Part shown: positions 35,122 through 50,370 of the stretch, in pieces
Position numbering within the stretch: position 1 is the stretch's first letter
Layout of the letters: each line of letters starts with the position of its first letter
Assembly: GCA_041167585.1 (NCBI GenBank)
Contig: JBEEHV010000005.1
Coordinates: forward strand, 13,883 to 77,882
Reading direction: 5' to 3'
Source of the DNA: Verrucomicrobiota bacterium
GTDB taxonomy: Bacteria; Verrucomicrobiota; Verrucomicrobiia; Chthoniobacterales; UBA10450
Length of the DNA stretch: 64,000 nucleotides
Notes under the pieces: generated by a model
Told to the model about the DNA's origin: nothing
Database searches by the model: none
What the model saw: only the letters and a program-made list of their open reading frames with translations
Program-made: the position numbers and the translations under genes

Positions 35122-36162
35122 ATGAAGGCGCTAACCTATCTCGGCCCGGGCCGCCGCGCCTTGGAAGAAAGGCCGAAGCCTTTCATCAAGGCGGCGACCG
35201 ATGCCATTGTCCGCGTCACCGCTACGACCATCTGTGGAACCGATCTCCATATTCTGAAAGGAGATGTGCCTTCGGTTACCGCGGGGCGAATCCTGGGACA
35301 CGAGGGAGTAGGCATCATCGAGGAAGTAGGCGCGAGCGTATCGAACTTCCAGGTCGGGACCCATGTTCTTATCTCCTGCATCACTTCTTGTGGGAAGTGC
35401 ACCAACTGCAGGAAAGGTATGTTCTCCCACTGCGAAAACGGCGGAGGTTGGATCCTGGGTAACACCATTGATGGGACCCAGGCGGAATACGTTCGAATTC
35501 CTCACGCCGATAATAGCTTGCATCCGATTCCCGCCGGCGCCGATGAGGAAGCGCTCGTGATGTTGAGCGACATTCTGCCGACTGGCTACGAGTGCGGTGT
35601 CCTGAATGGCAGGGTCAAACCCGGCGACACGGTAGCTATTGTTGGAGCGGGCCCGATAGGTTTGGCCGCCCTTCTCACCGCGCAATTCTACGCGCCGGCG
35701 GCGCTCATCATGATCGACGCGGACAAGAATCGCCTGGAACTTTCCACCAGCTTTGGAGCGACCAATGTCGTAAGCAACATTGGCAACGCGGTCCCGGAAG
35801 TGATGGCGCTCACGGACAATAGAGGCGTGGATGTCGCCATCGAAGCTGTCGGAGTGCCGGAGAGTTTTGACACCTGTCAACGGATCGTGGCTGCCGGTGG
35901 ACATATCGCGAACATCGGCGTCCACGGAAAGCCGGTGCAACTAAACCTGGACAAGCTTTGGTCGCACAATGTCACAATAACGACAGGCCTGGTTGATACC
36001 GTGACGACGCCTTTGCTCTTGAAGACTGTGATTGCTCGGAAGCTCCAGCCAGAACAGCTCATCACTCATCATTTCCCCTTCAGCGAAGCGATGAAGGCCT
36101 ACGACACTTTTTCCGATGCTATCAATCAGCGTGCCCTCAAGGTAATAATCACTAACGCATAA
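35122..36162 (+). CDS. zinc-dependent NAD(P) alcohol dehydrogenase (MDR family)
   Basis: GHEGVGIIEEVG; structural-zinc cysteines CITSCGKCTNCRKGMFSHC; Rossmann VGAGPIGL. Confidence 0.9.
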   Translation: MKALTYLGPGRRALEERPKPFIKAATDAIVRVTATTICGTDLHILKGDVPSVTAGRILGHEGVGIIEEVGASVSNFQVGTHVLISCITSCGKCTNCRKGMFSHCENGGGWILGNTIDGTQAEYVRIPHADNSLHPIPAGADEEALVMLSDILPTGYECGVLNGRVKPGDTVAIVGAGPIGLAALLTAQFYAPAALIMIDADKNRLELSTSFGATNVVSNIGNAVPEVMALTDNRGVDVAIEAVGVPESFDTCQRIVAAGGHIANIGVHGKPVQLNLDKLWSHNVTITTGLVDTVTTPLLLKTVIARKLQPEQLITHHFPFSEAMKAYDTFSDAINQRALKVIITNA

Positions 36163-36234
36163 GCACGCCGGGAACGCTGGTCTACCTCCAAACTTTCCAA
36201 GAGATCCAGGGGCTTTAACAACTGTTAGTTTACA

Positions 36235-36351
36235 GTTAGCGAGCGCTACGACCTTGCCGCGTCACGCGCGTGTGGCTGCAAGTGGAAGGTCGTAGCTACT
36301 CTCAGCGGGGAAACAGAGCGGGGCGCGGTTAGCTGCATCGCTTGGTTAGAT
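36235..36351 (-). repeat. distal, atypical attC-like site of array A
   Basis: Minus-strand read: ATCTAAC-CAAGCGATGCAGC... central 11-bp stem (36245-36255 / 36286-36296) ...GCGCTCGCTAAC. The R'' arm is typical, but the R' end reads CTCGCTAAC in place of CTCGTTAGG. Confidence 0.45.
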
Positions 36352-36369
36352 GGTTGGTCGTGAGACAAA

Positions 36370-37005
36370 CTACTTCTCCGGGTTTTCTAGTGCGCTCGGC
36401 CCGCGCTTTGCGACCGCCACGCCAAGGCCGGCTAGCCCAACGCTGAAGATCCCGTTGGCGATGATGGCCCCCCACGCATGAAGCGGACTCGCCTGAAGAA
36501 GCGGGATTAAGACCAACCCGGCCGCGGCTGCGATTGCAGCCCACCGCGGAAGAATCCCGGTTCGCCAGACACTGATCGCCAGCAGCAGCCATCCCAGCGC
36601 AAACACTCCGGCGGCCGAAGCGAAACCGATACTGGTCAACGGGTGCTTATCGATCGCACTGAGTGCCGCGAGGTTAATCCCAGCGAGCGGGTAAAAAACA
36701 AAAACATCGGTGAATTCCACTGCAAAGAGGAGGCAGCTTCCGATAAAAGCAAAAACAAATGAGACGGCACCAAACCGGCCAGCGCGATCCCTCTGCATTA
36801 GGTGCACTCCGAGCGACCCGAAGATCAACATCAACGCGGCCAGGCCCGAGAGTGACTGCCGAAACAAAAATAGACCCGTTGTCTCAGGAGGAATGCCTAA
36901 GCTGCGACTGTGAAACATCAGCGGCGCGATGATAGCATTGACGGCTAGCGTCAAAAGGGCGCCACACAACAACCCGATGCCGCAAGGTCGTAGAAAGGTC
37001 TTCAT
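36370..37005 (-). CDS. cassette ORF: polytopic membrane protein, function unknown
   Basis: About 6 hydrophobic helices. ATG at 37005 (MKTFLRPCGIGLLCGALL). The ORF is open up to 37089. Confidence 0.65.
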   Translation of the reverse strand: MKTFLRPCGIGLLCGALLTLAVNAIIAPLMFHSRSLGIPPETTGLFLFRQSLSGLAALMLIFGSLGVHLMQRDRAGRFGAVSFVFAFIGSCLLFAVEFTDVFVFYPLAGINLAALSAIDKHPLTSIGFASAAGVFALGWLLLAISVWRTGILPRWAAIAAAAGLVLIPLLQASPLHAWGAIIANGIFSVGLAGLGVAVAKRGPSALENPEK

Positions 37006-37143
37006 GATCGCCAGTTTGGGTGTGAGCTGGCGCGGGCGGCCCGTTTCAGCATGCATCATCACCACCACTGAGATGCAGCCATCGGCCAATCCGGATTCAA
37101 GTAAATGAGCAGAAGCGCGCCTCGTGCAGACGGGGCTTTGAGC

Positions 37144-37210
37144 ATCTAACGAGACACAAGATGAGCGACTCCGAAAGCTTTCGGAGTTCGCTGCATCGCC
37201 TGGTTAGGCC
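37144..37210 (-). repeat. attC site (67 bp, short form)
   Basis: Minus-strand read: GCCTAAC-CAGGCGATGCAGCGAACTCCGAAAGC/GCTTTCGGAGTCGCTCATCTTGTGTCTC-GTTAGAT. It is a near-perfect hairpin with a single unpaired A in GCGA[A]CTCC. Confidence 0.75.
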
Positions 37211-37311
37211 TTGTTGTCGCCATCATCTGCTCGACCCCAGCGCCACGTTGCGGTTGCCTTCGTCCGAGTGGTTGGCCGCGCTCCTCCGCCAGCGGCATGC
37301 GGACCTTCATG

Positions 37312-37722
37312 TCACGGCGAGGCCGGCGGCAGGAACTTGTTCATCTTCTGCGCCACCTCCATCGACCCGCCGACCTTGAGCTTACGGGTCAGGAACGCCT
37401 TGGCGCCGTTGAGATCGCCGTTGGCGAGTTGGACGAAGTCGGCCCCCTTCATCTTGTACGTCACCGTCGGAGCCGCCGCGGCGCCCGGCTGGACGGCGAT
37501 GTTGCCGTCGGCGATCGTCACCGTCCAGGTGCCGGCGCCTTCCAGGTCGTACACGACGGTCGCGTGCACGCCTCTCGCCTGTGCCGGGATGAAGCGGGCC
37601 TTGATCGTATCGAAGTATTCCTGGCAGCTCTCGATGCGTCGCATCTTCGGACTAGCGGCACAGCAAAGGCTGGCCACGGCGACGGAGATGAGCAGTGCGA
37701 GTAGGGTTGTTGTTCTTGTCAT
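37312..37722 (-). CDS. cassette ORF: secreted SCP2 sterol/lipid-binding domain protein
   Basis: Signal peptide: MTRTTTLLALLISVAVASLCCAAS. SCP2 C-terminal pattern: ADFVQLANGDLNGAKAFLTRKLKVGGSMEVAQKMNKF. Confidence 0.8.
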   Translation of the reverse strand: MTRTTTLLALLISVAVASLCCAASPKMRRIESCQEYFDTIKARFIPAQARGVHATVVYDLEGAGTWTVTIADGNIAVQPGAAAAPTVTYKMKGADFVQLANGDLNGAKAFLTRKLKVGGSMEVAQKMNKFLPPASP

Positions 37723-37805
37723 GACGAGTATCCAGCGCCTGGGATTACGAGCCGGTCAAGTCGCGAAAACACGTAAATTCCTGATCGTGCGACATCTGGC
37801 TATCG

Positions 37806-37941
37806 ACCTAACGAGAATGGAACGGACTGGCAAGCCGTGACATAGACTTCAAGCCCGCAGGGTAAACGAGTCGCGCGAGTGCATCAACAAGATCAGCGAC
37901 TCAGAAAGCTTTGGGAGTTCGCTGCATCGCCTGGTTAGGTC
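37806..37941 (-). repeat. attC site (long form, about 136 bp, with an internal degenerate R'-like box at about 37862)
   Basis: Minus-strand read: ACCTAAC-CAGGCGATGCAGCGAACTCCCAAAGCTTTCTGAGTCGCTGATCTTGTTGATG...CTCGTTTACC...GTCCGTTCCATTCTC-GTTAGGT. Confidence 0.65.
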
Positions 37942-38566
37942 TTTGTGGCTCTACGCGATGTGTCAACCACATGAACAACTCGCGAGGCTCGTAGCTAAAT
38001 CGTATCGAAATAGATGGTGCTGTCCATTCACGCACAATGTGCGGCGAGCGACCAGTCTCGGTGTACGTCGGCTTGATTCTGTGATCCGCAAACCAGTCAT
38101 TCACTCGTTGCGTAAGTTCTGGGTGATCTTTGCTCGCGGTGTAAACGATCTCTTCAGATACGAGCCGATCGCGGCGCAGCCACTGTTCGTACTCTATGCT
38201 CCTCGGGCGTGCGAGGACTGGATACGAGACAAGAAGTGGTGTGAACGGCTGCCGAAAGCTTCGCATATCCGAAGATCGCCTGCTCCATGTCGCGCTGTCG
38301 CTGTGATATCGAAAGCGACAGGTGGTGCACGTGGGTAGAACTGTCGGAGAGCCCGGTTCGATTTCGCAGCCGCCGAGAATGAAATCAAGATTCTTAACGT
38401 GGCGCTCGATCTCTTTGGGATCCATCACGGACAAGCCGTAGTGAATCGGAACGTCTTTGAGAGTGGCATGCCCGTTCGGGCATCGTTTGAGGTCGGCGCT
38501 CTTGACCTCAGCCGAGGCAATAATCGGAAGGAGCAGGAGTAATGGGGCAAGTGCGCTGCGCATCAT
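37901..38566 (-). CDS. cassette ORF: secreted hypothetical protein (221 aa); last 12 codons lie inside the attC
   Basis: Signal peptide: MMRSALAPLLLLLPIIASA. The C-terminal ...RPNQAMQRTPKAF is the translation of CCTAACCAGGCGATGCAGCGAACTCCCAAAGCTTTCTGA. Confidence 0.7.
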   Translation of the reverse strand: MMRSALAPLLLLLPIIASAEVKSADLKRCPNGHATLKDVPIHYGLSVMDPKEIERHVKNLDFILGGCEIEPGSPTVLPTCTTCRFRYHSDSATWSRRSSDMRSFRQPFTPLLVSYPVLARPRSIEYEQWLRRDRLVSEEIVYTASKDHPELTQRVNDWFADHRIKPTYTETGRSPHIVREWTAPSISIRFSYEPRELFMWLTHRVEPQRPNQAMQRTPKAF

Positions 38567-38568
38567 AG

Positions 38569-38601
38569 ACCTAACGATAATAAGATGAGCATGGTTAGAC
38601 C
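38569..38601 (-). repeat. attC remnant (33 bp; both core boxes, centre deleted)
   Basis: Plus-strand read: ACCTAACGATAATAAGATGAGC|ATGGTTAGACC. It sits between the stop of 38604..38942 and the start of 37901..38566. Confidence 0.5.
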
Positions 38602-38603
38602 TC

Positions 38604-38942
38604 TCACCTAAAATTTTCCAAAAAGCCGTCGATGCCGCCGGAGATCAGAAACCAAACTTTGATGACTTTGCCGTTGCGGAGGCGAACTTCATATACGTCA
38701 TATCTCTTCTTGCCGGGCGGAACTACTAGCGCTTGGCTGAGAACCTTCGACTTCGGATATTTCTGCGCGATCCAAGCGTAGGCGGATTGCTCGACCCCAA
38801 CGACTAGAACTGCCTTTTCAGGGGAGCTGCCGTCACCACCATAGTAGCCCGGTTTAGTGTTGCTATAGTCGGGTCCGCTGTCAGCCCTTGCGCAGCCGAT
38901 CGCGGAGCAACAAATCAACGCAAGAATGAGTAGTGTGCGCAT
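38604..38942 (-). CDS. cassette ORF: small lipoprotein (112 aa)
   Basis: ATG at 38942 gives MRTLLILALICCSAIGCA, a lipobox-type signal. The upstream TTG-extended part of the ORF is the translated attC. Confidence 0.7.
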   Translation of the reverse strand: MRTLLILALICCSAIGCARADSGPDYSNTKPGYYGGDGSSPEKAVLVVGVEQSAYAWIAQKYPKSKVLSQALVVPPGKKRYDVYEVRLRNGKVIKVWFLISGGIDGFLENFR

Positions 38943-38944
38943 AG

Positions 38945-39105
38945 GTCTAACGAGACCAAGACGAGCGACGGCTGGCGGGGGCGTGCTTTCGCTTCGGTTT
39001 TCTACTTTCAATTTTCACATTTCGCCTTCCACTGATGCCAGTCCTTTGCTGTCCTTTGGCCCGCTCAGGACCTTGAGCAATCGAAACGGCATCGCTTGGT
39101 CGGTC
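38945..39105 (-). repeat. attC-like site, long and degenerate at the R'' end
   Basis: The R' end GTCTAACGAGACCAAGACGAGCGACGGC (plus-strand read) is typical. The other end reads GCATCGCTTGGTCGGTC instead of GCATCGCCTGGTTAGGTC. Confidence 0.45.
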
Positions 39106-39120
39106 CCTTTCGCGCAGCCG

Positions 39121-39576
39121 TTATCTGTCGCGAAACCCCATGATGCTAGGGCCAGCCTTCTCCATCCCGTTGTCGTTGCCTAGCGTGGACCCTCGGCCAG
39201 TGAAATTGATCGGTATGTTGTAAAAAGGTCCTGGTCGGCCTGGTCTTGCGCGCCATTCTCGTAAGGCCTCGACGCTGGCATGATCAAGTATCTTGCTGCC
39301 CGAAGTGTCTGCCAGCTCGACTCGAGCGACCGTCCCGTCCGCGTTTAGAGTCACACGGCAGACGGCCCGCCCTTCGATGCGCCTCGACCCGGTGCTCGTG
39401 CGCACCCAAGCGTCTATAGGGTAGCGGGGCGGCGGCATGTAGGTAAACACATCGCTAAGGCGCTTCAAGGTATCAGCTGGAGCGGTTGCCACGATAATGA
39501 GCAGCATGAGAGAGATGACGGCCCGCTGCAAATGGCCCCATTTGGAATGTATCGCGTGTTTGGTGGCGTCTTGCAT
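39121..39576 (-). CDS. cassette ORF: TonB C-terminal-domain-like protein with N-terminal anchor
   Basis: ATG 39576 (MQDATKHAIH..AVISLMLLIIVA). C-terminal YPIDAWVRT..GRAVCRVTLNADGTVARVELADTSGSKILDHASVEALREWRARP resembles TonB_C. Confidence 0.65.
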   Translation of the reverse strand: MQDATKHAIHSKWGHLQRAVISLMLLIIVATAPADTLKRLSDVFTYMPPPRYPIDAWVRTSTGSRRIEGRAVCRVTLNADGTVARVELADTSGSKILDHASVEALREWRARPGRPGPFYNIPINFTGRGSTLGNDNGMEKAGPSIMGFRDR

Positions 39577-39578
39577 AA

Positions 39579-39628
39579 GCCTAACTACAATTAGACGAAA
39601 CGAAGTTTCGTCTACTTCGGCGTTGTTC
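39579..39628 (-). repeat. proximal short attC-like site / R' box of the first cassette of array A
   Basis: Plus-strand read: GCCTAAC-TACAAT-TAGACGAAAC-GAA-GTTTCGTCTA-CTTCGGC-GTTGTTC. The R' box and a 10-bp stem are clear; the partner box GTTGTTC is poor. Confidence 0.4.
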
Positions 39629-39747
39629 GACGGAAGTGCTCTGGTAAAGCGAAAGGGGAACCATTGCCCATTCGTAACCGCAGCTCTCCAGGGTCGGCAA
39701 GCCCAAACTCCTCGATCGGGTGCGCGCACGATTAGCAGCCGCGACCC

Positions 39748-40398
39748 TCACAGCTCGATAAGATGGTGGCGGATGGCGTACCGAACCAGGCCCGCCATCG
39801 ACTTCGCGCCTAGCTTGCGCATGAGCGTGGCCCGATGAGTTTCCACTGTGCGAATTTTCAGGCGAAGCGCCGCGGCCACCTCTTTGTTGCTGCTGCCTTG
39901 AGCGAGCAGGCGCACGATTTCCCGTTCGCGCGTGGTCAGCCTTAGGTCAGCCCGGCTCTGTTGTTTTCGGGCGGGCTGCAGGAATTTTGTGAAAAGCACG
40001 TCTGATGCTTCGGCGGTGAAGAAAGGCTTGTGTTCCGCTAACGACTTGATGGCAGTAATCAGATGCCGGTTGGCGTCAGTCTTTTCAATGTAGCTCTTGG
40101 CGCCTGCTTCAAATACTTCCTCGACCAGGTCCTTCGCGCTATGGCCGCTGAACGCCAGGACTTCCGTGTTCGGGAGCTCTTTTCTGATCTGGCCGATCGC
40201 GGCTAGTCCATCCAGTCCCGGCATCGTGAGATCAAACACCACCACATCGGGCTTCGTTTTGAGGGCGCGCTCGACTGCTTCATGTCCGTTCGTGGCCACA
40301 CCGCAAACTTCGAGATCGGGTTGACGTGCGATCAAGGCGCGGACTCCCTCCACCACCACATCATGATCGTCCGCGATTAATACTCTTACTGCCCGCAT
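39748..40398 (-). CDS. NarL/LuxR-family response regulator (orphan; paralog of 27697..28380)
   Basis: REC: VLIADDHDVVVEGV, VVVFDLTMPGLDG. HTH: LTTREREIVRLLAQGSSNKEVAAALRLKIRTVETHR. Confidence 0.9.
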   Translation of the reverse strand: MRAVRVLIADDHDVVVEGVRALIARQPDLEVCGVATNGHEAVERALKTKPDVVVFDLTMPGLDGLAAIGQIRKELPNTEVLAFSGHSAKDLVEEVFEAGAKSYIEKTDANRHLITAIKSLAEHKPFFTAEASDVLFTKFLQPARKQQSRADLRLTTREREIVRLLAQGSSNKEVAAALRLKIRTVETHRATLMRKLGAKSMAGLVRYAIRHHLIEL

Positions 40399-40506
40399 CT
40401 TGAAAATTGAATCTACCTGAGTCCATGCTGGCTAAGGGTTGGGGTGAAATTCTGGATTCCTGCCAGGTGCTGCGGACGTTCTTGGTTCGCCATTAACTTG
40501 AAGCGG

Positions 40507-40773
40507 TCATCCCTGAGCATGAGCCAGGCGCAGGGCCATAAGAGGTGAGGTTACGGGCGGCAATTCCAGCATGGTCACTCTCGCTTCTACCCCTTCGAGC
40601 CACGCATAGCAGCGCCGGGCCGCGACGAAGCCGAAGAGGTCGAACACTTCGACCACGCCCTCCCACAACTCCTCGCCGAAAATCTCGCACACCGCCGCCG
40701 AGCGGATGTGCTCGGCGCGACATTGGTAATTGAGTTCGACGGCCTCTTTAAGATCTTCCAAGGGCTGATTCAT
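40507..40773 (-). CDS. small conserved-looking hypothetical protein (88 aa)
   Basis: ATG start with balanced composition. It lies between the FN3 gene and the LuxR regulator on the same strand. No motif was recognised. Confidence 0.55.
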   Translation of the reverse strand: MNQPLEDLKEAVELNYQCRAEHIRSAAVCEIFGEELWEGVVEVFDLFGFVAARRCYAWLEGVEARVTMLELPPVTSPLMALRLAHAQG

Positions 40774-40847
40774 CAGGTCCGGTTTCGGAGAGGGAGAGGA
40801 CGGCGGCTTACCCCAGAATTCTGGCCGCCGTCCCCGTTTTTTCGCAG

Positions 40848-41789
40848 CTACGCAGTGAAAGTCGATTTGTTGCTCGCCGGGCCTTCGCCGCGCGAGTTAA
40901 CGCCCACCACCCACACCATGTAAGTCACCCCAGGCGTGAGCGGAGCAAGACCCACCACCGAGACTGTGGTCGTGGTGGAGACACCGGCGTCCGTCTCGGG
41001 CCCGCCGGCCGGTTGACGCTTGGCGCGAAGGAAAGTGGCGTGCGCGGGCATGGCCGGAATGGTCAGCTCTCGCGTCCCGGCATTGAAGGGTGCGGCGCCA
41101 GGCGCATCGGGCAGCGGCTGCGGTTGCGCGTCGCCCGGGGCGCGTTTCGGTTGCATGTTGATCTTGGCCAGTTCCAGGGTCCGCTCGCCGTCGTCACTGG
41201 CGCTGCAATAGAACAGCCGCACCCGTGAGTTGGCGTCCTCCAGCTTCTCGCGCGAATCGTCCCGAGCCTGGATGAGCGTCTGTCGACTTCCGCCGGTGGC
41301 CAGCAGCGAGGCGGCGTCGAATACGGCCAGCCAGTTCGCGATCCGCCCGGCCAATGAGGCCGGATACTTGCCGGCAGTGGGAACACTCGGGTCGGCCGTG
41401 GCGCTGGCGGCGAGATTCGCGAGCGATTCCGTGCGGGTAATATCGAGATCGCCGATCTTGCCGCCCGTCCAGCCGTAGGCCGTGTAAGCCTGAAGGCGCT
41501 CGGCGTCGGTGATATCGTCGCTGGCTACGGCGCCGATGGCGTTGAACCCGTTGCGGAGGAGCTCGCCCAGCCGCTCGAGCGCTTGCTTGCGTTGCTCCGA
41601 CGCGCCCACGGTAGCGCCCTCCATAATGGTCGCGGCCGCGTTTTTGCCTTTGGTATCGGCCAGCCGGGTCGTGACCAGCGGGTTGAGGGTGGCGCTGAGT
41701 TTGAAGGGATCAGCGGCCGTGCGGGCCGTGTCTACCTGGAGAATGAGTTCTGCCGTTTCGATAGCTTCGAGGGTTCTGCGATCTGCCAT
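40848..41789 (-). CDS. hypothetical protein with helical N-terminal region and C-terminal fibronectin type III-like domain
   Basis: The last roughly 90 aa (LTIPAMPAHATFLRAKRQ...VSVVGLAPLTPGVTYMVWVVGVNSRGEGPAS) fit an FN3 beta-sandwich. There is no signal peptide. Confidence 0.7.
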   Translation of the reverse strand: MADRRTLEAIETAELILQVDTARTAADPFKLSATLNPLVTTRLADTKGKNAAATIMEGATVGASEQRKQALERLGELLRNGFNAIGAVASDDITDAERLQAYTAYGWTGGKIGDLDITRTESLANLAASATADPSVPTAGKYPASLAGRIANWLAVFDAASLLATGGSRQTLIQARDDSREKLEDANSRVRLFYCSASDDGERTLELAKINMQPKRAPGDAQPQPLPDAPGAAPFNAGTRELTIPAMPAHATFLRAKRQPAGGPETDAGVSTTTTVSVVGLAPLTPGVTYMVWVVGVNSRGEGPASNKSTFTA

Positions 41790-42057
41790 GTGATAATCCT
41801 TTCTGGGATTGTTTGGGGTTAGGGGTGCGTTGAGGGGCTCTACTGGTAACTACGATGTCTGCCCGGCTAAGTTGGGAAATTTTTTCGCGGCCACTCTTGA
41901 GCCCCACGGATGCCGACGCGATCGGCGCCGCTGCTGGAATGATGACGCAGCTGCTTTTTCCCCAATCCGCTGCTGCTGGAAAAAGAAAACAACTGGCGTG
42001 AACCCTTCCTCGTTCCACTCCCGCCAGCCCCGCGCTGCGGCGCTACGTTGGGCGCGT

Positions 42058-42483
42058 TCCTGGAACGATCTGCGCGCTCCAGTTTCGCGCGATGCTCTTT
42101 CCTGACGCGAGACCAGGGGTCGCGCAGGGAGTCGTCCGCGCTCCTGCAATTACGTCCCAGCTTCGTCAAGACGCGCGGGTTGCTGCACTCCGGACATCCG
42201 GGAATGCGTCCGACGATTTACCGCGCCGATTCTGGATGTCAGGAAAGGAGCAAAACCTTTTCCCCGGCCGAGTCTGGACGTCCGGAAACCGGCCGGGAAA
42301 CTTCCCGCGGCGACTCCAGACGTGCCGACAGGAGTACCGGATTTTCGTTTCCGCGTTCCTGATATCGATACAGGAGCAAAACTTTCCCCCGCGCCAGTCT
42401 CGGACGTCAGTGCAGGAGCACGGAACGTTGTCTGGCGACCATCCACGAGGGAAAACCGCCTTTTTACGTTAGACGTTACCTAT
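42058..42483. repeat. array of about 10 degenerate tandem units with 42-bp phasing, each headed by a TCYGGA-YR-TCMGGA box
   Basis: Box starts: 42058, 42100, 42142, 42189, 42231, 42273, 42315, 42357, 42398, 42442. Spacings: 42, 42, 47, 42, 42, 42, 42, 41, 44. Best boxes: TCCGGACATCCGGG, TCTGGATGTCAGGA, TCTGGACGTCCGGA. An inner AGGAGCAAAAC..TTTCCCC motif recurs. Confidence 0.75.
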
Positions 42484-42813
42484 TTATCGCCTCGCGCTGG
42501 CTCCCATCAAACGTTCCCAGTCCCCGAGGTCGCCGCCATATCCGAGATCGCAGGCTTTCTGCCACGTAAAACGAGCCTCGCGCTCGTGTCGTTTTCCACT
42601 TTTGGTGTCGGGCATGTTCCGGTATTGCCGGCGGGCGATGAAGATATGGACTGCCAGCGGGTCGTGCTCCGCTCGCATTTCCTCGACCACTCGTTCCACC
42701 TCGTTGATCGCCGCGGTAAGCCGGTCCAGGGCGTTTTCGAGCTGATTGGAACGCATTGTGTTCAGTTGAACATCTGCTAGTTTGGAAGTCAATTTGGTCT
42801 GCGCATTGCCCAT
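42484..42813 (-). CDS. hypothetical protein (109 aa; alternative start 42756)
   Basis: ATG 42813 (MGNAQTKLTS...) or ATG 42756 (MRSNQLENALDRL...). It has a coiled N-terminus and then RFTWQKACDLGYGGDLGDWERLM. It is divergent from the 42840 operon. The upstream part of the ORF is Cys/Leu-rich and was rejected. Confidence 0.5.
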   Translation of the reverse strand: MGNAQTKLTSKLADVQLNTMRSNQLENALDRLTAAINEVERVVEEMRAEHDPLAVHIFIARRQYRNMPDTKSGKRHEREARFTWQKACDLGYGGDLGDWERLMGASARR

Positions 42814-42839
42814 CACCGGAGATGGGCATACAGAAACAT

Positions 42840-43037
42840 ATGGCAAAAGACACAGGCAAAGGATCACGCAAAGGGGCGGTGAAAGCCCGCACGCAATCGA
42901 ACAACCCGAAGACAAAAGACTGGACCAAACGGAACGAAACGCCCGGCAGCAAAAAGCGCGGCGAGTTCATGAACGTGAAGAAAGACGGCAAGCCCTTCAA
43001 AGGCGTCGCTAAAGAGCCGGATAAACGGAGAAAATGA
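42840..43037 (+). CDS. small basic protein (65 aa), first gene of the TIR-like operon
   Basis: MAKDTGKGSRKGAVKARTQSNNPKTKDWTKRNETPGSKKRGEFMNVKKDGKPFKGVAKEPDKRRK. The stop is 1 nt before the next ATG. It resembles a widespread small K/G-rich protein type, from memory and unverified. Confidence 0.55.
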   Translation: MAKDTGKGSRKGAVKARTQSNNPKTKDWTKRNETPGSKKRGEFMNVKKDGKPFKGVAKEPDKRRK

Positions 43038-43038
43038 T

Positions 43039-44151
43039 ATGGCGAAGAAACCCGAAAAAGAACCCTCAAAACGTCGTAACTTTCCGTTCCACACACTGGA
43101 AGACGCGTTACCCGTCGCGCAAAAGGTCGCCGACGAAAGGGGTGGTCAACCATTCAAACGCCTTTTGCTTTCCGATGCTCTCGGAATCAAGCCAAGCAGC
43201 AGCAACTATCGCGATTTGCTAAGTTCCTCTTTCAAATACGGTCTGACCGACGGTACTGAAAAAGCCTCAGAGATTCTTCTTACTGAGCTTGGCGCACGAG
43301 CGACGCAAACAACATCGCCGACCGACCGGATGAAGGCTTTACGTGAGGCCGCAATAAAGCCCGACGTCTTCAAACGGTTCTATACCGCATATCGAGAGCG
43401 GAAGTTGCCCTCGACGGAAATGTTCCCGAAGATCCTCAACGCCGATTTTGGAGTGCCGTTGGAGCATGCAGGCGAGTGCGCCCGTTTCATAGAGCAGAAC
43501 GGTAGATTCGTTCAGATCGTCCGCGATATCGGCGGGTCTCCCCATGTCCTGTTAGATTTGGAAGCCGTTACAGACACCACTACTCAATCAAACGGGAAAG
43601 AAGACGAGCCGGAGGTGATGCCGGATACGCCTCCCCTTGATGCTGATGTTCCGCACCCCCCAGCCCCAGGCGCGTCACCATCCACACCGCCCCCACCGGA
43701 AAATGACAGTGCTCCGAAGCCGATTTTCATTGGACACGGGAAAGACAAGGTGCCCCTCCAAAAGCTTCAGGCGATTCTCACCACCTTCCGCATTCCGCAC
43801 CGAGTGACTGTAGATGAAGCGAACCTCGGCCGGCCTATCTCGCAGAAGGTGAAAGACACGATGATGCAATGCGGGTCGGCCATACTCATTTTCACCCGCG
43901 ATGAGAGATTTTTTGACGAGAATCAGCAAGAAATCTGGCGTCCCTCAGAGAATGTTGTCCACGAGCTTGGAGCGGCTTCATTCGCTTACGGAGATCGGAT
44001 AATGATTTTCAAAGAGAAGGGGCTGCATTTTCCCACGAACTTCCAGAACATCGGTTACATCGAATTCGAAGGACAAAACCTCGAGTCAAAGACCGCAGAC
44101 CTGTTGAAAGAGCTTATTGGTTTCGGCCTTGTAAAAATCACACCGGCTTAA
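43039..44151 (+). CDS. two-domain protein: uncharacterised helical (wHTH-like) N-domain, Pro-rich linker, C-terminal TIR-like nucleotide-binding domain (CAP12/Pycsar-effector, COG4271-type)
   Basis: The C-terminal 140 aa are PIFIGHGKDKVPLQKLQAILTTF...GSAILIFTRDE...RPSENVVHELGAASFAYGDRIMIFKEKGLHFPTNFQNIGYIEFE. This follows the FIxHGxD / hydrophobic-T.DD / R.NVxxELG / G..Y pattern of bacterial TIR-like effector domains. GGAG lies 9 nt upstream of the ATG. Confidence 0.8.
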   Translation: MAKKPEKEPSKRRNFPFHTLEDALPVAQKVADERGGQPFKRLLLSDALGIKPSSSNYRDLLSSSFKYGLTDGTEKASEILLTELGARATQTTSPTDRMKALREAAIKPDVFKRFYTAYRERKLPSTEMFPKILNADFGVPLEHAGECARFIEQNGRFVQIVRDIGGSPHVLLDLEAVTDTTTQSNGKEDEPEVMPDTPPLDADVPHPPAPGASPSTPPPPENDSAPKPIFIGHGKDKVPLQKLQAILTTFRIPHRVTVDEANLGRPISQKVKDTMMQCGSAILIFTRDERFFDENQQEIWRPSENVVHELGAASFAYGDRIMIFKEKGLHFPTNFQNIGYIEFEGQNLESKTADLLKELIGFGLVKITPA

Positions 44152-44177
44152 CCCGGTCTCCTCAATAGCCCCGCCCA

Positions 44178-45014
44178 GTGATGAGACGCCGCGAGTATCA
44201 TGATGGTGATGCGGTCGTGAACTTCATGGATTGCAGGTTCGAGAGTGACCTGCGAAAAGCAAAACTTCCAACCTTCCCTGACCAGCGGAAGCTAAAGACA
44301 TCGCAAGACGCGGCTCTTTGGATGTTGTGGGTGATGAGAGATTACTTCGGACATCACTCTCCAATGTACGCATCAGAATTGGCTCATTTGCTGGAACTAC
44401 GGGGGATAGCGGTCCGGGAAGATCAGCTTGAGCAGCTGCTAATGCGTGCAGGTAAGAAGATAATGAGAAAACGGTATGATGAAACGTCGACCGAGCTTGC
44501 ATATATGATCGCCGAAAAAGGGGTCGCATTTCTACAAGCGAAGTACTCGGCGACGGGAGTGCGAGCAATTATTATCGATGGCACACAGCCGTGGCGCGAC
44601 CGGCATGTTACCCTACCAACAATCGCTGAGCAGCTTTCCGGTCGGATCTGTGTCGTCGATAAGTATTACGGCCGCGGAACACTTGCGGTGTTATACCACT
44701 TCAGGCATGGGTCGCCGCTTCAGTTCCTCACCGCCCGAACGAGCGAGACGGCAGGCGCATTCGCGCGAGAACTAAGGGATTTCAAAAGAGAGAGTCCTAC
44801 GTTGGAGGTGCGCATTTTTCCGGACTCCGGCGAGTTACACGACCGCTATATCATCTCCGAGCACGCTTTGATTATCGTTGGCCATGGAATCAAAGACATC
44901 GGAACGAAAGAATCATTCCTGATTTTTCTCGAAGGCGACAGCACTTCGGAGTTGCGACAAACACTTCTCGAGAAGTTCAACCATCGATGGTCACAGTCGT
45001 ACGTTCCAACATAA
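44178..45014 (+). CDS. hypothetical protein with C-terminal PLD-like (MIT_C-type HDR...GxGxKD) module
   Basis: 278 aa (GTG 44178 or ATG 44181), 26 nt after the TIR-like gene. The C-terminus is LEVRIFPDSGELHDRYIISEHALIIVGHGIKDIGTKESFLIFL. The N-terminal half is wHTH-like (ASELAHLLELRGIAVREDQLEQLL). The domain call is tentative. Confidence 0.75.
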   Translation: MMRRREYHDGDAVVNFMDCRFESDLRKAKLPTFPDQRKLKTSQDAALWMLWVMRDYFGHHSPMYASELAHLLELRGIAVREDQLEQLLMRAGKKIMRKRYDETSTELAYMIAEKGVAFLQAKYSATGVRAIIIDGTQPWRDRHVTLPTIAEQLSGRICVVDKYYGRGTLAVLYHFRHGSPLQFLTARTSETAGAFARELRDFKRESPTLEVRIFPDSGELHDRYIISEHALIIVGHGIKDIGTKESFLIFLEGDSTSELRQTLLEKFNHRWSQSYVPT

Positions 45015-45188
45015 GTGAAACCCGCCAATTCTTGCAGCTGGGTCTGCGAAGCTCGTCACTCGCTGATCATTAAGTCCAGTGGGATTCGCCTCGGCTTATT
45101 TCCGCGGAGAATTGCATCCCTCTAGCTTTGTGATGAGCATGCTCGTGGAGGGCTTGCATTCAGACCTCGGCGGCAGCACCATGGCCGA

Positions 45189-45968
45189 ATGAAAACGTCC
45201 CCCCGCCTCGCTGGGATCATCCCCTTCACCTGCATTTTATTCCTCATCGCGCTCGCCCTGACAACGCCTTGCGTAACGGCAGGTGTCCCACAACCGAAGC
45301 TCTACGCGGCGCTCCTGGCCAAGGCCCGCGCGGGAACGCTCCGCGTCGTGCCCGGTGAAGCCCCGGCACCGCGCCCGTTGGCGATGGCTGCGGGAAAGCG
45401 CGCCGGTTCCGGCTCTGAGATTTTTCCGCCCACTTCTTATCGCGCGGCGGCGAAGACTTCGTTCGAATCGGGGCCGGTCGAAACGTTCGCCACACTCGAC
45501 GCGTTGTTCACGCCGCTCCCTGCGGATAGCAAGATGTCGAAGGATTTCCCGAAGCTGGTGGTGAAGAAAGGGAATGTAAGTCCCCGGGTCCCGTTGGAAA
45601 AACGGAACGTGAAGATACCGGCTTTCATCTATTGGGTCGCGCCAGAAAGCGATCACGATTTCCACGTGATCCTGGGGAGCACGTCGGAATTGACCTCGAC
45701 CACCAGATTCATGAACAGCGAGATTTCGGGCCTGCCTTCGGCCAACCCAACCAAGAGTCCCTTCCCGCAACGCCGCAGCGATATCCGGGCGATGCTCAAG
45801 AAGCACGAGAACGTTGACGGTCTTTTTGTGAAGCCGGTTCCCGTTAGCGTGACCGGCACGCTTCTGTGGGACGGCGAGCATCGCGCGCCCCACAACGTCG
45901 GCCCCGAGGGACTAAGGCCGACCAAGGCCTGGGAGATTCACCCGATCAAGCTTTTGGCGGAACGTTAG
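45189..45968 (+). CDS. secreted hypothetical protein (259 aa)
   Basis: Signal or anchor: MKTSPRLAGIIPFTCILFLIALALTTPCVTA. Its TAG stop lies inside the GTTAGCGAGC end of the distal attC remnant of array B. Confidence 0.7.
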   Translation: MKTSPRLAGIIPFTCILFLIALALTTPCVTAGVPQPKLYAALLAKARAGTLRVVPGEAPAPRPLAMAAGKRAGSGSEIFPPTSYRAAAKTSFESGPVETFATLDALFTPLPADSKMSKDFPKLVVKKGNVSPRVPLEKRNVKIPAFIYWVAPESDHDFHVILGSTSELTSTTRFMNSEISGLPSANPTKSPFPQRRSDIRAMLKKHENVDGLFVKPVPVSVTGTLLWDGEHRAPHNVGPEGLRPTKAWEIHPIKLLAER

Positions 45969-45998
45969 CGAGCCGTTCGCTGCATCGCCTGGTTAGAC
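45964..45998 (-). repeat. distal truncated attC (R''-L'' arm only), ends in GTTAGCGAGC like the distal site of array A
   Basis: Minus-strand read: GTCTAAC-CAGGCGATGCAGCGAACGGCTCGCTAAC. Confidence 0.5.
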
Positions 45999-46463
45999 GT
46001 TCCGCTGAGTCCACCATGAAACGATCTCGTGATCTGCGGCCATTTCTCTGCCGTGCTCCGCCCACCAATCCACGAGAAGCCATCGCACAGCATCGCCCAT
46101 CGAACACTGCGGGTGCGGAAACAAGGTCGTGCTAGCGGTCGTGAGCGTGTGAATGAACCAAGCAGCAGTCTCGGCTCGCTTGCGTAAGACTGAGAGGGCT
46201 TCCAGGCTGAAACCGTCCAAATCCACCTCGCCAGAAAGCGCGATGAGCGCGATGGCCGCCTCGACCTCCGGCAGGTAAGGCTTCTCTGCCTCCTCGATGC
46301 GCGAGATCAGGTCGTCGGAATCATCAACGTCTGATTCGTCGAACGTGTAGACACTAGGCGCTTCTCGCTTCTTCAGGTTGAAGATAAGAATGCCGTCGAA
46401 GTAGTGTTCGAGATCATACCACTGCCGAATCTGTTCGGACATGTTGTAGAAGGACTCGGACAT
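45993..46463 (-). CDS. cassette ORF: acidic hypothetical protein (156 aa)
   Basis: ATG 46463 (MSESFYNMSEQIRQWYDLEHYF...). It has a D/E-rich stretch, FDESDVDDSDDLISRIEEAE. The TAA stop is the TAA of the GTCTAAC box. Confidence 0.65.
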   Translation of the reverse strand: MSESFYNMSEQIRQWYDLEHYFDGILIFNLKKREAPSVYTFDESDVDDSDDLISRIEEAEKPYLPEVEAAIALIALSGEVDLDGFSLEALSVLRKRAETAAWFIHTLTTASTTLFPHPQCSMGDAVRWLLVDWWAEHGREMAADHEIVSWWTQRNV

Positions 46464-46478
46464 GCGCGTGGCTGTTAC

Positions 46479-46601
46479 GTCTAACGAGAACAAGATGGGT
46501 GACGGCGGACGAGACCGCCTGTCGCTCGGAGTGGATGTGAGGGAGTCATCTCAATAGCGGGCGCTCAACGGTCCGCCGTTCGCTCCATCGCCTGGTTAGG
46601 T
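46479..46601 (-). repeat. attC site (123 bp)
   Basis: Minus-strand read: ACCTAAC-CAGGCGATGGAGCGAACGGCGGACCG...CGTCCGCCGTCACCCATCTTGTTCTC-GTTAGAC. Confidence 0.8.
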
Positions 46602-47114
46602 CTGGTTGATCGGAGTGCCATTTACGTCGTAGATGCGCAGACGTGTCGGGATGCGCGCAGCTACTTCCGGCTGGCTGCCCACCTCAACAACCCACCGCTC
46701 GCCGCCAGCGACGATCTGCGCACAAAAGATGTCGACCTGGAGCTGGAGTTTCGACCCGAGTTGGTTGCAGTGAACTGTCGAAGTAGGTGGTGCCACTGTG
46801 AACTGAAAGCGCTCGAGTGCCTCGCGGGCGCTCTGCGAAACAATTTCCTCGCGACCCTCGTGCAAGAACGCACATCGCAATGCGTAGCAATCACGCCCAC
46901 TCAGGAAGACGTGGCGCTCACGATCTGGACCGATCTCGCGGATGTACTGAGGGCCGACGAAGCGATCAAACCACGCGACGTAACGATTCTGCGAGCCTGC
47001 CGCGGAATCTTCGAGCCAGCCGCAAATGTCCGGAACCACTAGAGCCGTGCTGAGAGCCGCGTACCAGTTCTGCTGCGCGACGGCTGCCGTTACTGATTGG
47101 AGTAGGTGTTGCAT
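46596..47114 (-). CDS. cassette ORF: hypothetical protein with Rx4H (HEPN-like) motif (172 aa)
   Basis: NWYAALSTALVVPDICGWLE ... LSGRDCYALRCAFLHEG, where RCAFLH is an R-x4-H motif. Predicted helical. The TAA stop is inside the ACCTAAC box. Confidence 0.7.
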   Translation of the reverse strand: MQHLLQSVTAAVAQQNWYAALSTALVVPDICGWLEDSAAGSQNRYVAWFDRFVGPQYIREIGPDRERHVFLSGRDCYALRCAFLHEGREEIVSQSAREALERFQFTVAPPTSTVHCNQLGSKLQLQVDIFCAQIVAGGERWVVEVGSQPEVAARIPTRLRIYDVNGTPINQT

Positions 47115-47121
47115 GTGAAAG

Positions 47122-47245
47122 CCCTAACGAGAACAAGATGAGCGACGGCGCACGAGAGCGCGTGTCGCTCGGAGTGAAAGTGTGGAAGCCATCTCAAAAG
47201 TTGAGCGCACAGCGGTCCGCCGTTCGCTCCATCGCATGGTTAGGC
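47122..47245 (-). repeat. attC site (124 bp)
   Basis: Minus-strand read: GCCTAAC-CATGCGATGGAGCGAACGGCGGACCG...GTGCGCCGTCGCTCATCTTGTTCTC-GTTAGGG. The arms GAGCGA[A]CGGCG and CGCCGTCGCTC pair with one bulged A. Confidence 0.8.
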
Positions 47246-47728
47246 CTTGTTGGGTGGAAGAGCAAAGCGTTGAGGCGCACTGCCGTCTTTGAAGTGGAGC
47301 AAGACAAAATGGTCAGACTCATGCCACTCCCACGTAAACTCGCCCTGGTAGTAAAGCGGGCTTGTGGTGAGGCGAATAGCTTTCTGGTCCGCGGCGCGAA
47401 AGAGAAAAACATGGAAGCCGTACTGATCCTTGCGCCACTCGGACTGGAAGTCGATATCCGCGTAGGCGGCGAGATCCTTGCTCGGCGACAGTGAAGAGGA
47501 CACGTAATACGAAACGCGTTGGTCGCGAAAATATAAGTAGTCGCCATGATAGACACTCTCAAATCCGCCGGTCATATACTCTGCGAGTCCGACGCGGCGA
47601 AAGCCGCCACCGAGGTCTTTGGTGTCCTCGACGACCGGGTGACCTGCGGTTGGTATGCGCGAGCTGTCCGTGCACTGCGCTAATAACAGAGCTGCAGAGA
47701 TCAGTGACATCGGGAGCGACGGCAGCAT
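47240..47728 (-). CDS. cassette ORF: probable lipoprotein (162 aa)
   Basis: ATG 47728 gives MLPSLPMSLISAALLLAQC. The TAA stop is inside the GCCTAAC box. The ORF is open up to 47776 through the R' half-site. Confidence 0.65.
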   Translation of the reverse strand: MLPSLPMSLISAALLLAQCTDSSRIPTAGHPVVEDTKDLGGGFRRVGLAEYMTGGFESVYHGDYLYFRDQRVSYYVSSSLSPSKDLAAYADIDFQSEWRKDQYGFHVFLFRAADQKAIRLTTSPLYYQGEFTWEWHESDHFVLLHFKDGSAPQRFALPPNKA

Positions 47729-47730
47729 GG

Positions 47731-47755
47731 GCCTAACGAGAAATGGACGTCCTAG
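47731..47755 (-). repeat. proximal R' half-site of array B (first recombination point; no recognisable R'' partner or attI/intI upstream)
   Basis: Minus-strand read: GGACGTCCATTTCTC-GTTAGGC, then CC-ATG. It closely resembles the R' end of the 37806 site (GTCCGTTCCATTCTC-GTTAGGT). Confidence 0.5.
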
Positions 47756-47904
47756 TGACGGGAAAAAAGGCGTCATTCGGCCGCCTATTTCTGGGCTTTG
47801 GTGGGGAGAATGCCTGAAAAGGCTTCACGATTCAGTGATAACCTCCGCGTCAGACCCGGACAAGCTGAAACTCGGTCCCGGCGTGATCCGCGGAGCGCTA
47901 GAAC

Positions 47905-48873
47905 TCAGCGGTTCCGGGTAGAGGCAGGCGCTTCGGCTTGCGAAGGTTCACTCCCGCCGAACAACATGGAAAAGACGACGAACACGGAGGCGTGAGGCGC
48001 GTCATCCGTTACCCCAAAGAGGGGAGAGACATCGAGCCGGGTATTTCGCGAAGGCTTCCACGCTACGGTCGGTCCGATCACGACCCGGGCAGAGTTGGTT
48101 CCCTCCTCCCGGAGGCCGGCGTCGGTGAAGTTAATGTATTGCATTTCCGCGCCGACTTTCAGGCGCTCGTTCGAAAGCAGGATGGGGAACATGATGCTTT
48201 GCGAGAATCCAACTTCGCGGCCGCGGTCGCCGCCGACCTCCTGTTCGAAAAACAAATTGGCGGCCCACTCCACCTTGTTGCTGAAATCCTGGGCGAGGAG
48301 CAGTCGCACTTCGAACGAATCGGGCAGCGGCAGGTGCTCTTCGAGGAACGCCCGGCCTTCGCCTTTCGGAACTTCCTCCGGCGGCCCCTCATCATGGAGG
48401 ATGTCGCCGACGCCGAATTTGTATTCCACGAAGAGCGTCGGGTTGAGCAGGATCTTGTTCCAATCGGCCAGGGCATAGCGGCCTTCGATGCTGAACGTGC
48501 GCTCCTGGGTGCGGCCGCGATGATTTTCGACCGAGTTTTCAAATGCCAAACCGAATCGGTTGGGCAACCCGATCTCGATTTCCTGCGTCAACATGTGATC
48601 GGGTCGATTGAACTTGAGCGAATCGCCCTGGTAGATAAGCCCGGCGAAGACGGCCCCGGGCGGCAGCACATAAGACTGGGTAAGGTTTGAAAAACGGCTT
48701 CGGGAGAAACCGGGCGTCGCTCCATAAGAACTCGGCACTTCTTCTCCGGAGACGGTGACCCTCTGCGTGGTGACGGCCTCCTGGCCGTGAAGCGACTGGC
48801 TGCCGGCGATACCGAGAATGGCCGCCGCCCCGGCGAAAAGGGCGATAGCGCGAGAGTGAAGGCGAAAAAGCAT
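47905..48873 (-). CDS. outer-membrane beta-barrel-like protein, function unknown
   Basis: Signal peptide: MLFRLHSRAIALFAGAAAILGIAGSQSLHG. Alternating amphipathic strands and an aromatic-rich C-terminus (VFVVFSMLF). Confidence 0.7.
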   Translation of the reverse strand: MLFRLHSRAIALFAGAAAILGIAGSQSLHGQEAVTTQRVTVSGEEVPSSYGATPGFSRSRFSNLTQSYVLPPGAVFAGLIYQGDSLKFNRPDHMLTQEIEIGLPNRFGLAFENSVENHRGRTQERTFSIEGRYALADWNKILLNPTLFVEYKFGVGDILHDEGPPEEVPKGEGRAFLEEHLPLPDSFEVRLLLAQDFSNKVEWAANLFFEQEVGGDRGREVGFSQSIMFPILLSNERLKVGAEMQYINFTDAGLREEGTNSARVVIGPTVAWKPSRNTRLDVSPLFGVTDDAPHASVFVVFSMLFGGSEPSQAEAPASTRNR

Positions 48874-48988
48874 GGGGCTGGATTACAGATTCGTAATGCC
48901 GCCAGCAAGCCTTTTCTTTACATCTTCTGGGGTTGCGAACGATTTCCGCAATGGCGAGGGACGCGTCCGATCTAGCGGAGCGTCTCGC

Positions 48989-50062: not shown

Positions 50063-50370
50063 ACGCGCAGTAATGTCGTGTTCGCCCTGTTAATCAAGTC
50101 GCTCCGGGCGAGAAGTTCGCGCGCGTGCAGTTGCTGACAATCGGTGGCGTCCTGAGTTGGACTCAACGCGCCGAGTATCCAGACTACGAACCGCATCTAA
50201 ACTTCGCGAAAGCCAAAGCCGAAAGCGGACCGGAGCAGCAGATCTTGATTTTGCCTGTTGCGGTGCCGGCATGATAGACGCCGTACCGCTCGGCCACGCG
50301 GCCTCCCCAAAAATGTGAGGACGCGAACTTCGATTTGCAGGATATTATTGGGGGGCCGAGTTAGCGAGCG

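Follow-up and report, generated by a model that had tools for sequence, protein, structure and literature searches.

Are the palindromic repeats that lie between five open reading frames (ORFs) on the minus strand of a Chthoniobacterales genome the recombination sites (attC) of an integron, and, if so, what has become of the integrase gene, intI? The question is raised by a 64,000-nt stretch of a Chthoniobacterales (Verrucomicrobiota) soil genome, hereafter the window, to whose positions all coordinates refer. A prediction made earlier from the sequence (the original prediction) had described the region 36235-39628 as an integron cassette array with sites of one attC family. Linkage of the repeats to integron integrase (IntI) genes in related genomes, covarying stems, folds with bulges on one arm and the agreement of site and gene strands all uphold that description, and the region, called array A here and taken as 36234-39727, is very likely what remains of a chromosomal integron which has lost intI and whose array is decaying. 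The extent first proposed was right in its five cassettes, but the array reaches 39727 and includes an attI-like site and a stub of intI.

Array A consists of five minus-strand cassettes and six sites of one attC family. The conserved arms of these sites were found where the original prediction had placed them, and they stood out when arm patterns were scored against shuffled sequence. The 3' arm GCATCGCYTGGTTAG had 12 matches with up to three mismatches in the window against 3.1 expected, a number reached by none of 100 shuffles; good matches (0-2 mismatches) lie at 36335, 37193 and 37924 in array A and at 45982, 46585 and 47229 in a second array, array B, and the copy at 39089 in array A is a decayed match. 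The 5' arm CTAACGAGANCAAGATGAGCGAC was matched three times with none expected, and a repeat finder grouped the same arm copies in its families D1-D6. A covariance model, R1, was built from related arrays of the same repeat family and run unfiltered over the 64 kb on both strands. It returned exactly eight significant matches, every one on the plus strand and none outside arrays A and B. All sites are on the plus strand and all cassette ORFs on the minus strand, with six sites for five ORFs in array A. A consensus scan detected no sigma-70-like promoter in the intergenic sites, the sites carry no T tails, and neither GC content nor GC skew distinguished the arrays from the rest of the window.

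The relatives of the repeat are informative about what it is. An exact-pattern scan with TCGCTSCATCGCNTGGTTAG, using one genome per species, gave at least 119 stretches (loci holding the same repeat family are given L-numbers here). Almost all came from soil metagenome-assembled genomes of Chthoniobacterales/Verrucomicrobiota, including Candidatus Udaeobacter; among the matches listed, a few bins were labelled Acidobacteria, Dormibacterota or Limnocylindria. Among the same matches, arrays contained up to 12 sites per 8 kb (11-12 in related loci), and tblastn revealed full-length IntI1 homologues beside the arrays in L021, L044, L072, L090, L099 and L115, with 52-55% identity over about 315 residues, as well as IntI fragments or pseudogenes in L017, L023, L073 and L105. 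The NCBIfam model TIGR02249, 'integron integrase', scored 489 bits in L021 and 478 bits in L072 against a cutoff of 265, and the related arrays start 60-150 nt from the intI genes. The orientation of intI varied among the complete loci: the usual divergent arrangement was present in L021, L072, L090 and L115, and in L099 (3231-4223) and L044 (3240-4205) the gene was co-oriented with the cassettes, its 3' end abutting the array.

The repeats also have the layout and the structure of attC. On the ORF strand (minus, the top strand) an R'' box and an R' box enclose an imperfect palindrome, so that the sites read RYCTAAC ... GTTAGRY. The consensus structure was derived by aligning 108 diverse canonical members of the family, in which CTAAC and GGTTAG were invariant, the loop columns were variable, and compensatory double-sided changes occurred in 12 of the 20 consensus pairs; for example, the column pair 21/122 was CG in 56 sequences and GC in 41, and the pair 28/114 was CG in 48 and GC in 46. 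The plus strand of intact copies folds into an R stem CTAAC/GTTAG (YCTAAC/GTTAGR), an internal loop, an L stem GATSAGCGAC/GTTCGCTSCATC and a variable terminal part. Two single-base bulges were found on the 3' arm only, in 37144-37210, 46479-46603, 47122-47247 and in 37806-37940 once an insertion is removed from it. Bulged bases on one arm reportedly mark the bottom, recombined strand of attC (a result said to be that of Bouvier et al. in 2009). This identifies the plus strand as the bottom one and the minus strand as the top one, in agreement with the direction of the ORFs.

Because of the linkage to IntI in the relatives, the covarying structure and the attC layout, the repeat is, as far as homology and folding can tell, a lineage-specific attC family of a chromosomal integron lineage in Verrucomicrobiota. 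No published description of this attC family was found in the literature, and no Rfam family matched 35500-48500 at E <= 1, Rfam having no attC family. The canonical length is about 120 nt: in a survey of 233 sites with both arms, lengths being taken with two flanking bases on each side, 154 were 123-124 nt long, and minor length classes were 64-66, 103, 108-110, 129 and about 193 nt. The canonical form is present in array B and absent from array A. The family is homogeneous across genomes; the criterion for sedentary chromosomal integrons is more than 19 sites or presence in all genomes of a species, together with homogeneous attC sites, and the window has 6 + 4 sites.

The fate of the integrase gene can be read at the upstream end of array A. 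An attI-like end on the plus strand (39580-39640; fold z = -3.3) contains an R box (GCCTAAC) and, after it, a 10-bp inverted repeat, TAGACGAAAC/GTTTCGTCTA, at 39593-39615, and this layout agrees with that of the attI regions beside intI in L105 and L115. Some 115 nt away from this R box the plus strand reads GGCAAGCCCAAACTCCTCGATCGGGTGCG; here a 29-nt stub of the 5' end of intI (39696-39724, plus strand), divergent from the cassettes, encodes GKPKLLDRVR. In complete integrons of the family, the equivalent sequence at the same distance and in the same orientation encodes the IntI N-terminal GKPKLLDQVR. A degenerate 29-nt pattern, GGCAAGCCNAAACTCCTCGAYCARGTSCG, derived from the related intI genes, had a single match in the window, with one mismatch and none expected. 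The frame of the stub breaks about 24 nt past the match, where a LuxR-type response-regulator gene ends (39748-40398, minus strand). No integrase or other tyrosine recombinase was detected elsewhere in the 64-kb window by tblastn with IntI1, XerC and six Chthoniobacterales IntI; the best match had E = 0.02, and such matches were short and scattered.

A complete integron has intI beside attI and at least one attC, and of the intI of array A only the stub at 39696-39724 remains. Clusters of attC sites lacking an integron integrase are known as CALINs (Cury et al. 2016, PMC4889954), and array A, with six sites and no recombinase across the 64 kb searched, falls into that class. Judged from its sequence, it is an integron with a deleted intI, i.e., a CALIN whose origin by intI loss is still visible, because the attI-like site and the 29-nt stub have the distance and orientation that complete integrons show and no other integrase fragment is left. 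The proposal that the array is no longer maintained is borne out in the same way: the attI-like end and the stub have been kept and the rest of intI is gone.

The attC sites of array A show what has happened to the array itself. The two canonical sites of array B scored 110-121 bits with R1, those of array A only 67, 47, 34, 32 and 27 bits. Since the scores drop in comparison with array B and two of the sites do not fold as attC, the sites of array A are decaying. The most distal (terminal) site, 36234-36351, is of full length (47.1 bits), but it reads TTAGC instead of CTAAC in the R' box and is divergent over its 5' third; the 85 nt at its 3' end can be aligned with the canonical site 47122-47245, and its first 34 nt show about 82% identity to 50359-50391. 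Just one site is structurally intact, a 66-nt short form (37144-37209; 67.2 bits; DNA fold z = -5.3), which had rightly been called a clean hairpin; its L stem has two single-base bulges on the 3' arm and its loop is shrunk to a GAAAGCTTTC hairpin. Another short-form site, 37806-37940, is split by a 70-nt insertion, and R1 matched just its inner part (37883-37940, 32.4 bits). The insertion point is between CTAACGAGAA and CAAGATC, and removal of 37818-37887 restores a 65-nt site that is identical to 37144-37209 at 60 of 65 positions and folds canonically, with a 7-bp R stem and an L stem with two bulges.

The two remaining sites are more severely damaged. The 32-nt stump at 38569-38600 (26.7 bits with 93 model positions skipped) was correctly recognised as such in the original prediction: its R' box, spacer and the start of L' (GATGAGC) are fused directly to (GC)ATGGTTAG, so that the L stem and the loop are deleted, and it forms just a 5-bp R stem (-1.4 kcal/mol, z = -1.25). 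In the 161-nt site, 38945-39105 (33.8 bits over 38945-39060), an intact 5' arm is followed by a 3' arm that is degenerate at about 39030-39060 and then by 45 nt ending in GCATCGCTTGGTCGG. The decay of the R'' box that had been claimed for it was confirmed, but the site, rather than being one long form, looks like a decayed 116-nt site joined to a 45-nt remnant of another 3' arm. It gave no attC-like fold (z = 0.01). The alignment and folding that had been suggested earlier thus separated the intact copies, which fold as attC, from the stump and the 161-nt site, which do not. The one-arm bulges are also absent from 38569-38601 and 38945-39105. The core boxes are kept in 37144-37209, 37806-37940 and 38569-38600, R' is mutated in 36234-36351 and R'' in 38945-39105. 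The sites are indeed heterogeneous in length, but they do not form one in-situ series of deletions and expansions as had been supposed, the 66-nt form being a recurrent subfamily found in four other genomes; 64-66-nt forms are present in L010, L013, L030 and L040.

A feature of the terminal sites may be mentioned separately. The distal sites of arrays A and B (36234-36267 and 45963-45973) share a changed R' region, with GTTAGCGAGC where other sites have CTAACGAGA; GTTAGCGAGC is also present at 50359-50391, a stretch that covers the stop codon of a response-regulator gene (50371-51021). This 9-mer was found three times in the window, on one strand, and only twice across all other loci.

The five minus-strand ORFs that had been proposed were recovered, SCP2 and TonB_C by Pfam and the others by membrane, signal-peptide and lipobox features in their translations. 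The first cassette ORF (39121-39576) encodes a TonB_C-domain protein with an N-terminal anchor (PF03544, 41.3 bits, the Pfam match being given for 39121-39729). It is followed by a small lipoprotein with the lipobox AIGC (38604-38942; no Pfam match), a secreted protein with an N-terminal signal peptide (37901-38566; no Pfam match), whose stop codon falls within the attC 37806-37940, an SCP2-domain protein with a signal peptide (37312-37722; PF02036, 63.6 bits) and a polytopic membrane protein with seven hydrophobic windows (36370-37089; no Pfam match), the true start of which is probably an ATG giving about 211 aa. Start codons are 2-9 nt downstream of the R' box, e.g., GTTAGGCTTATG and GTTAGACCTATG (38943-38951, 38564-38575, 39575-39586, 47112-47128 and 47726-47736), which leaves no space for a Shine-Dalgarno sequence outside the attC.

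Relatives of the TonB_C cassette occur in eight other array-bearing loci. The closest, in L003, has 87.5% nucleotide and 82% amino acid identity, is flanked by different attCs, and its homology with the ORF of array A ends at the ORF boundaries. Because relatives of this ORF are spread over eight array loci and the closest is placed between different attCs, the comparison supports the idea that the cassettes were drawn from a shared pool. The lipoprotein has a 37% identical homologue in the array locus L039 and distant relatives in two loci. Exact-protein look-ups for presence or absence of the cassettes gave only the source contig and short Logan contigs with the same order, ending inside attC.

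Several observations weigh against the view that array A is a decaying integron remnant. The attC function of its sites is deduced from homology and structure. R1 is a model of the family itself, so that it tests family membership and not attC in general. In L003 the TonB_C ORF is homologous but the downstream attC is not, contrary to a simple model in which a cassette travels with its attC; to judge from this pair, the ORF and the attC do not always move together. A candidate trace of intI where array B starts (47860-47912) was rejected as unproven, its match being about 15 nt long and the sequence from 47873 on being homologous to the flank of the adjacent 322-aa gene in L038. Finally, the integrase search covered 64 kb, and array A could still be served by an intact intI located in another part of the genome.

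This last point leads to an alternative that is improbable in our judgement but deserves real consideration, namely that array A lacks an integrase locally and is active all the same, with an IntI encoded elsewhere acting in trans and the variant sites being tolerated functional forms. Intact intI genes do occur in related genomes alongside numerous arrays of this repeat, array B's two canonical sites match the best of the family, and half of the CALINs were reported from replicons encoding IntI (Cury et al. 2016, PMC4889954). However, four of the six sites of array A are without something that attC is known to need: the L stem in 38569-38600, the L'' arm and R'' box in 38945-39105, the R' box in 36234-36351 and a normal R-to-L spacing in 37806-37940. 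A far weaker case can be made for an array that never had an integrase of its own, the cassettes having been put at a secondary chromosomal site as a CALIN formed de novo. De novo insertion is a recognised route to CALINs (PMC4889954), but the upstream end of array A is unlike a random secondary site, with an attI-like R box and inverted repeat and then the 29-nt intI match, spaced and oriented as in complete integrons, and this origin is very improbable. It is harder still to believe that the repeats are generic intergenic palindromes, either of the REP/BIME (repetitive extragenic palindrome/bacterial interspersed mosaic element) or of the MITE-like (miniature inverted-repeat transposable element) type, or terminators that resemble attC. 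They are intergenic, palindromic and lineage-specific and have no Rfam match; yet their boxes are RYYYAAC/GTTRRRY, their bulges are asymmetric, each ORF has exactly one site and all sites share one orientation, the arrays begin at integron integrase genes in six loci, none of the repeats is found elsewhere in the 64 kb, and T tails are lacking.

If array A is the remnant of a chromosomal integron, its history could be sketched as follows. Five promoterless cassettes, read from the minus strand and each followed by an attC of the lineage's own family, would have entered at the attI-like site, as expected from established integron biology. The plus strand, being the attC bottom strand, would form in its single-stranded state a hairpin composed of the R and L stems, the unpaired spacer between them, two bulged bases and a variable loop, and the integron integrase, to go by what is known of integrons, would recognise this hairpin, with cleavage in the R' box. 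Selection on the sites would have relaxed once the resident integrase was gone. Residual mobility would be limited at most to the SCP2 cassette segment between 37806-37940 and 37144-37209, and only with IntI supplied in trans.

The 70-nt insertion in 37806-37940 is the only unusual part of array A and might be new. The original prediction had seen in it an 'internal degenerate second R' box' (TAAACGAG), which turned out to be part of a structured insertion element (37818-37887, plus strand) that reads TGGAACGGACTGGCAAGCCGTGACATAGAC...GAGTGCATCAA. The recurring sequence is TGGAACGGACTGGCAAGCCGTGACATAGAC-N16-GAACGAGTCGCGCGAGTKMATCAA, of which 17 copies were found in genome loci and the window and 94 copies in 91 soil metagenome contigs, all of them on the attC bottom strand; apart from the window, copies are in L037, L039, L060, L066, L084, L094 and L124-L214. 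attC matches were also present on 62 of these 91 contigs, and where insert and attC overlapped they were always on the same strand. Comparison with empty sites showed that insertion is precise and has occurred at no fewer than five positions of attC, among them the spacer, following CTAACGAGAA, and the loop or stem extension, following GCTCGGAA, GCGCGAA and CGGAA. The insert occurs 3' of GAA or CAA and ends in TCAA; nearly all copies have AA at the end of the left flank (GAGAA in 39 and GCGAA in 20 of 94), and its right end is ATCAA in 51 of 94, which fits either no duplication or a 2-nt AA duplication. Tandem copies have a 70-nt period. The first hairpin exists in six different fully complementary stem versions and the second in three, both with covariation. 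There is no clear 3' hairpin, no terminal inverted repeat and no ORF in the insert, and it has no Rfam match. As for an autonomous parent, no copy had its ends more than about 150 nt apart except for unrelated pairings, and a transposase partner did not come to light, no profile search for transposases having been made.

Two other interpretations of this part of the array were tried. The left part of the 136-nt site could have been an attI × attC hybrid, as the attIs also begin with CTAACGAGAAWTGG; this was dropped because the same 70 nt are found in the loops and stem extensions of other attCs. A promoter read by hand in the insert, TTGATG-17-TACCCT on the cassette strand, was not detected by the consensus scan. 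It may also be recorded that in L003 (6056-6438), L152, L178 and L203 some attCs reach 200-380 nt because they contain composite or degenerate members of the insert family, with repeated GACATAGAC ... GCCGCGAGGGT units.

The distribution of the copies tentatively suggests, with the odds somewhat against it, that the insert is an undescribed family of miniature, ORF-less mobile elements specific to the unpaired parts (spacer and loop) of folded attC bottom strands. Such behaviour would be expected, by analogy, from single-strand DNA transposition of the IS200/IS605 type acting on the strand that IntI uses in its extruded form. Miniature elements of that type (palindrome-associated transposable elements, PATEs) would be expected to insert strand-specifically 3' of a short target, without terminal inverted repeats or target duplication, and to have subterminal hairpins and a Y1 transposase partner; in the insert, strand specificity and a covarying 5' hairpin were observed, but no clear 3' hairpin. 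Other elements reported to target attC are group IIC-attC introns and IS1111-attC insertion sequences (PMC3001079, PMC11187229). The likeness is that the insert also resides inside attC in a constant orientation to the bottom strand; the differences are that it has 70 nt, is without an ORF or intron domains, and uses several positions and not one. If the suggestion is true, integron recombination sites would be a niche for a second single-strand-specific mobile element, and the insert could inactivate or modulate attC or give an outward signal to silent distal cassettes. An insert lodged in attC would, if mobile, tie integrons to another class of small mobile DNA.

The attC family of array A resembles the Vibrio cholerae repeats (VCR/VXR), the lineage-specific attC family of about 120 nt in sedentary chromosomal integrons of Gammaproteobacteria. 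Both are lineage-specific families of about 120 nt tiled between small ORFs of unknown function, here with 90-95% identity between genomes. The host, however, is a member of the Chthoniobacterales, the arrays in the window are short (five and three cassettes) and integrase-less, and there are length subfamilies of about 65, 103, 108, 129 and 193 nt. Integrons in Verrucomicrobia were already noted by Cury et al. (2016, PMC4889954), and none of the 11 taxon-specific attC models from Ghaly et al. (2021, PMC8352920) covers Verrucomicrobia. The repeats are a lineage-wide, VCR-like attC family in Chthoniobacterales, a group common in soil metagenomes, and a model of the family would let soil cassettes be assigned to this lineage.

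As a CALIN, array A agrees with those described previously (PMC4889954): two or more attCs share a strand, intI is absent within 4 kb, and the cassettes are few, of unknown function and free of resistance genes. It differs in that its origin can be read from the attI-like site and the 29-nt stub of intI. In the survey of Cury et al. (2016, PMC4889954), an intI pseudogene was called only with more than 50% coverage of the profile, and such pseudogenes were found near only 5% of CALINs; a stub as short as that of array A would be missed under this rule. Chromosomal integrons with inactivated or lost intI are reported for Xanthomonas and Treponema (PMC12444791, PMC3607928). There the array reportedly likewise outlives the decay of the integrase and the recombination sites then erode; in array A, by contrast, intI was almost wholly deleted and not point-mutated, and there are two such arrays 6 kb apart. 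The general understanding of integrons is left unchanged by array A, but it is a clear example of a CALIN arising via intI loss, and it provides a set of damaged sites for the study of attC requirements, comprising an intact short form, an insertion-split form, a stump, a site lacking the L'' arm and another with a mutated R' box.

Array B (45952-47790), 6 kb from array A, is integrase-less as well but better preserved. Its sites are on the plus strand, with three minus-strand cassette ORFs of unknown function. They consist of a truncated terminal site (45952-45998, 16.8 bits with R1), two canonical attCs (46479-46601, 110.5 bits, and 47122-47245, 121 bits) and an attI-like end (47730-47790) with the sequence CCTAACGAGAAATGG.... 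Both canonical sites have counterparts with 90-95% identity in dozens of other Chthoniobacterales genomes or loci. A 322-aa ORF beside the start of array B (47873-48926) has 87% DNA identity to 182-1229 of L038, from another Verrucomicrobiota bin; this relative has different neighbours and an attC about 1.3 kb off. Between the two arrays, 43039-44151 encodes a 370-aa protein with a TIR domain of the CAP12/Pycsar-effector type (PF10137, 54.7 bits); it has unannotated ORFs on its flanks and may mark a defence gene neighbourhood.

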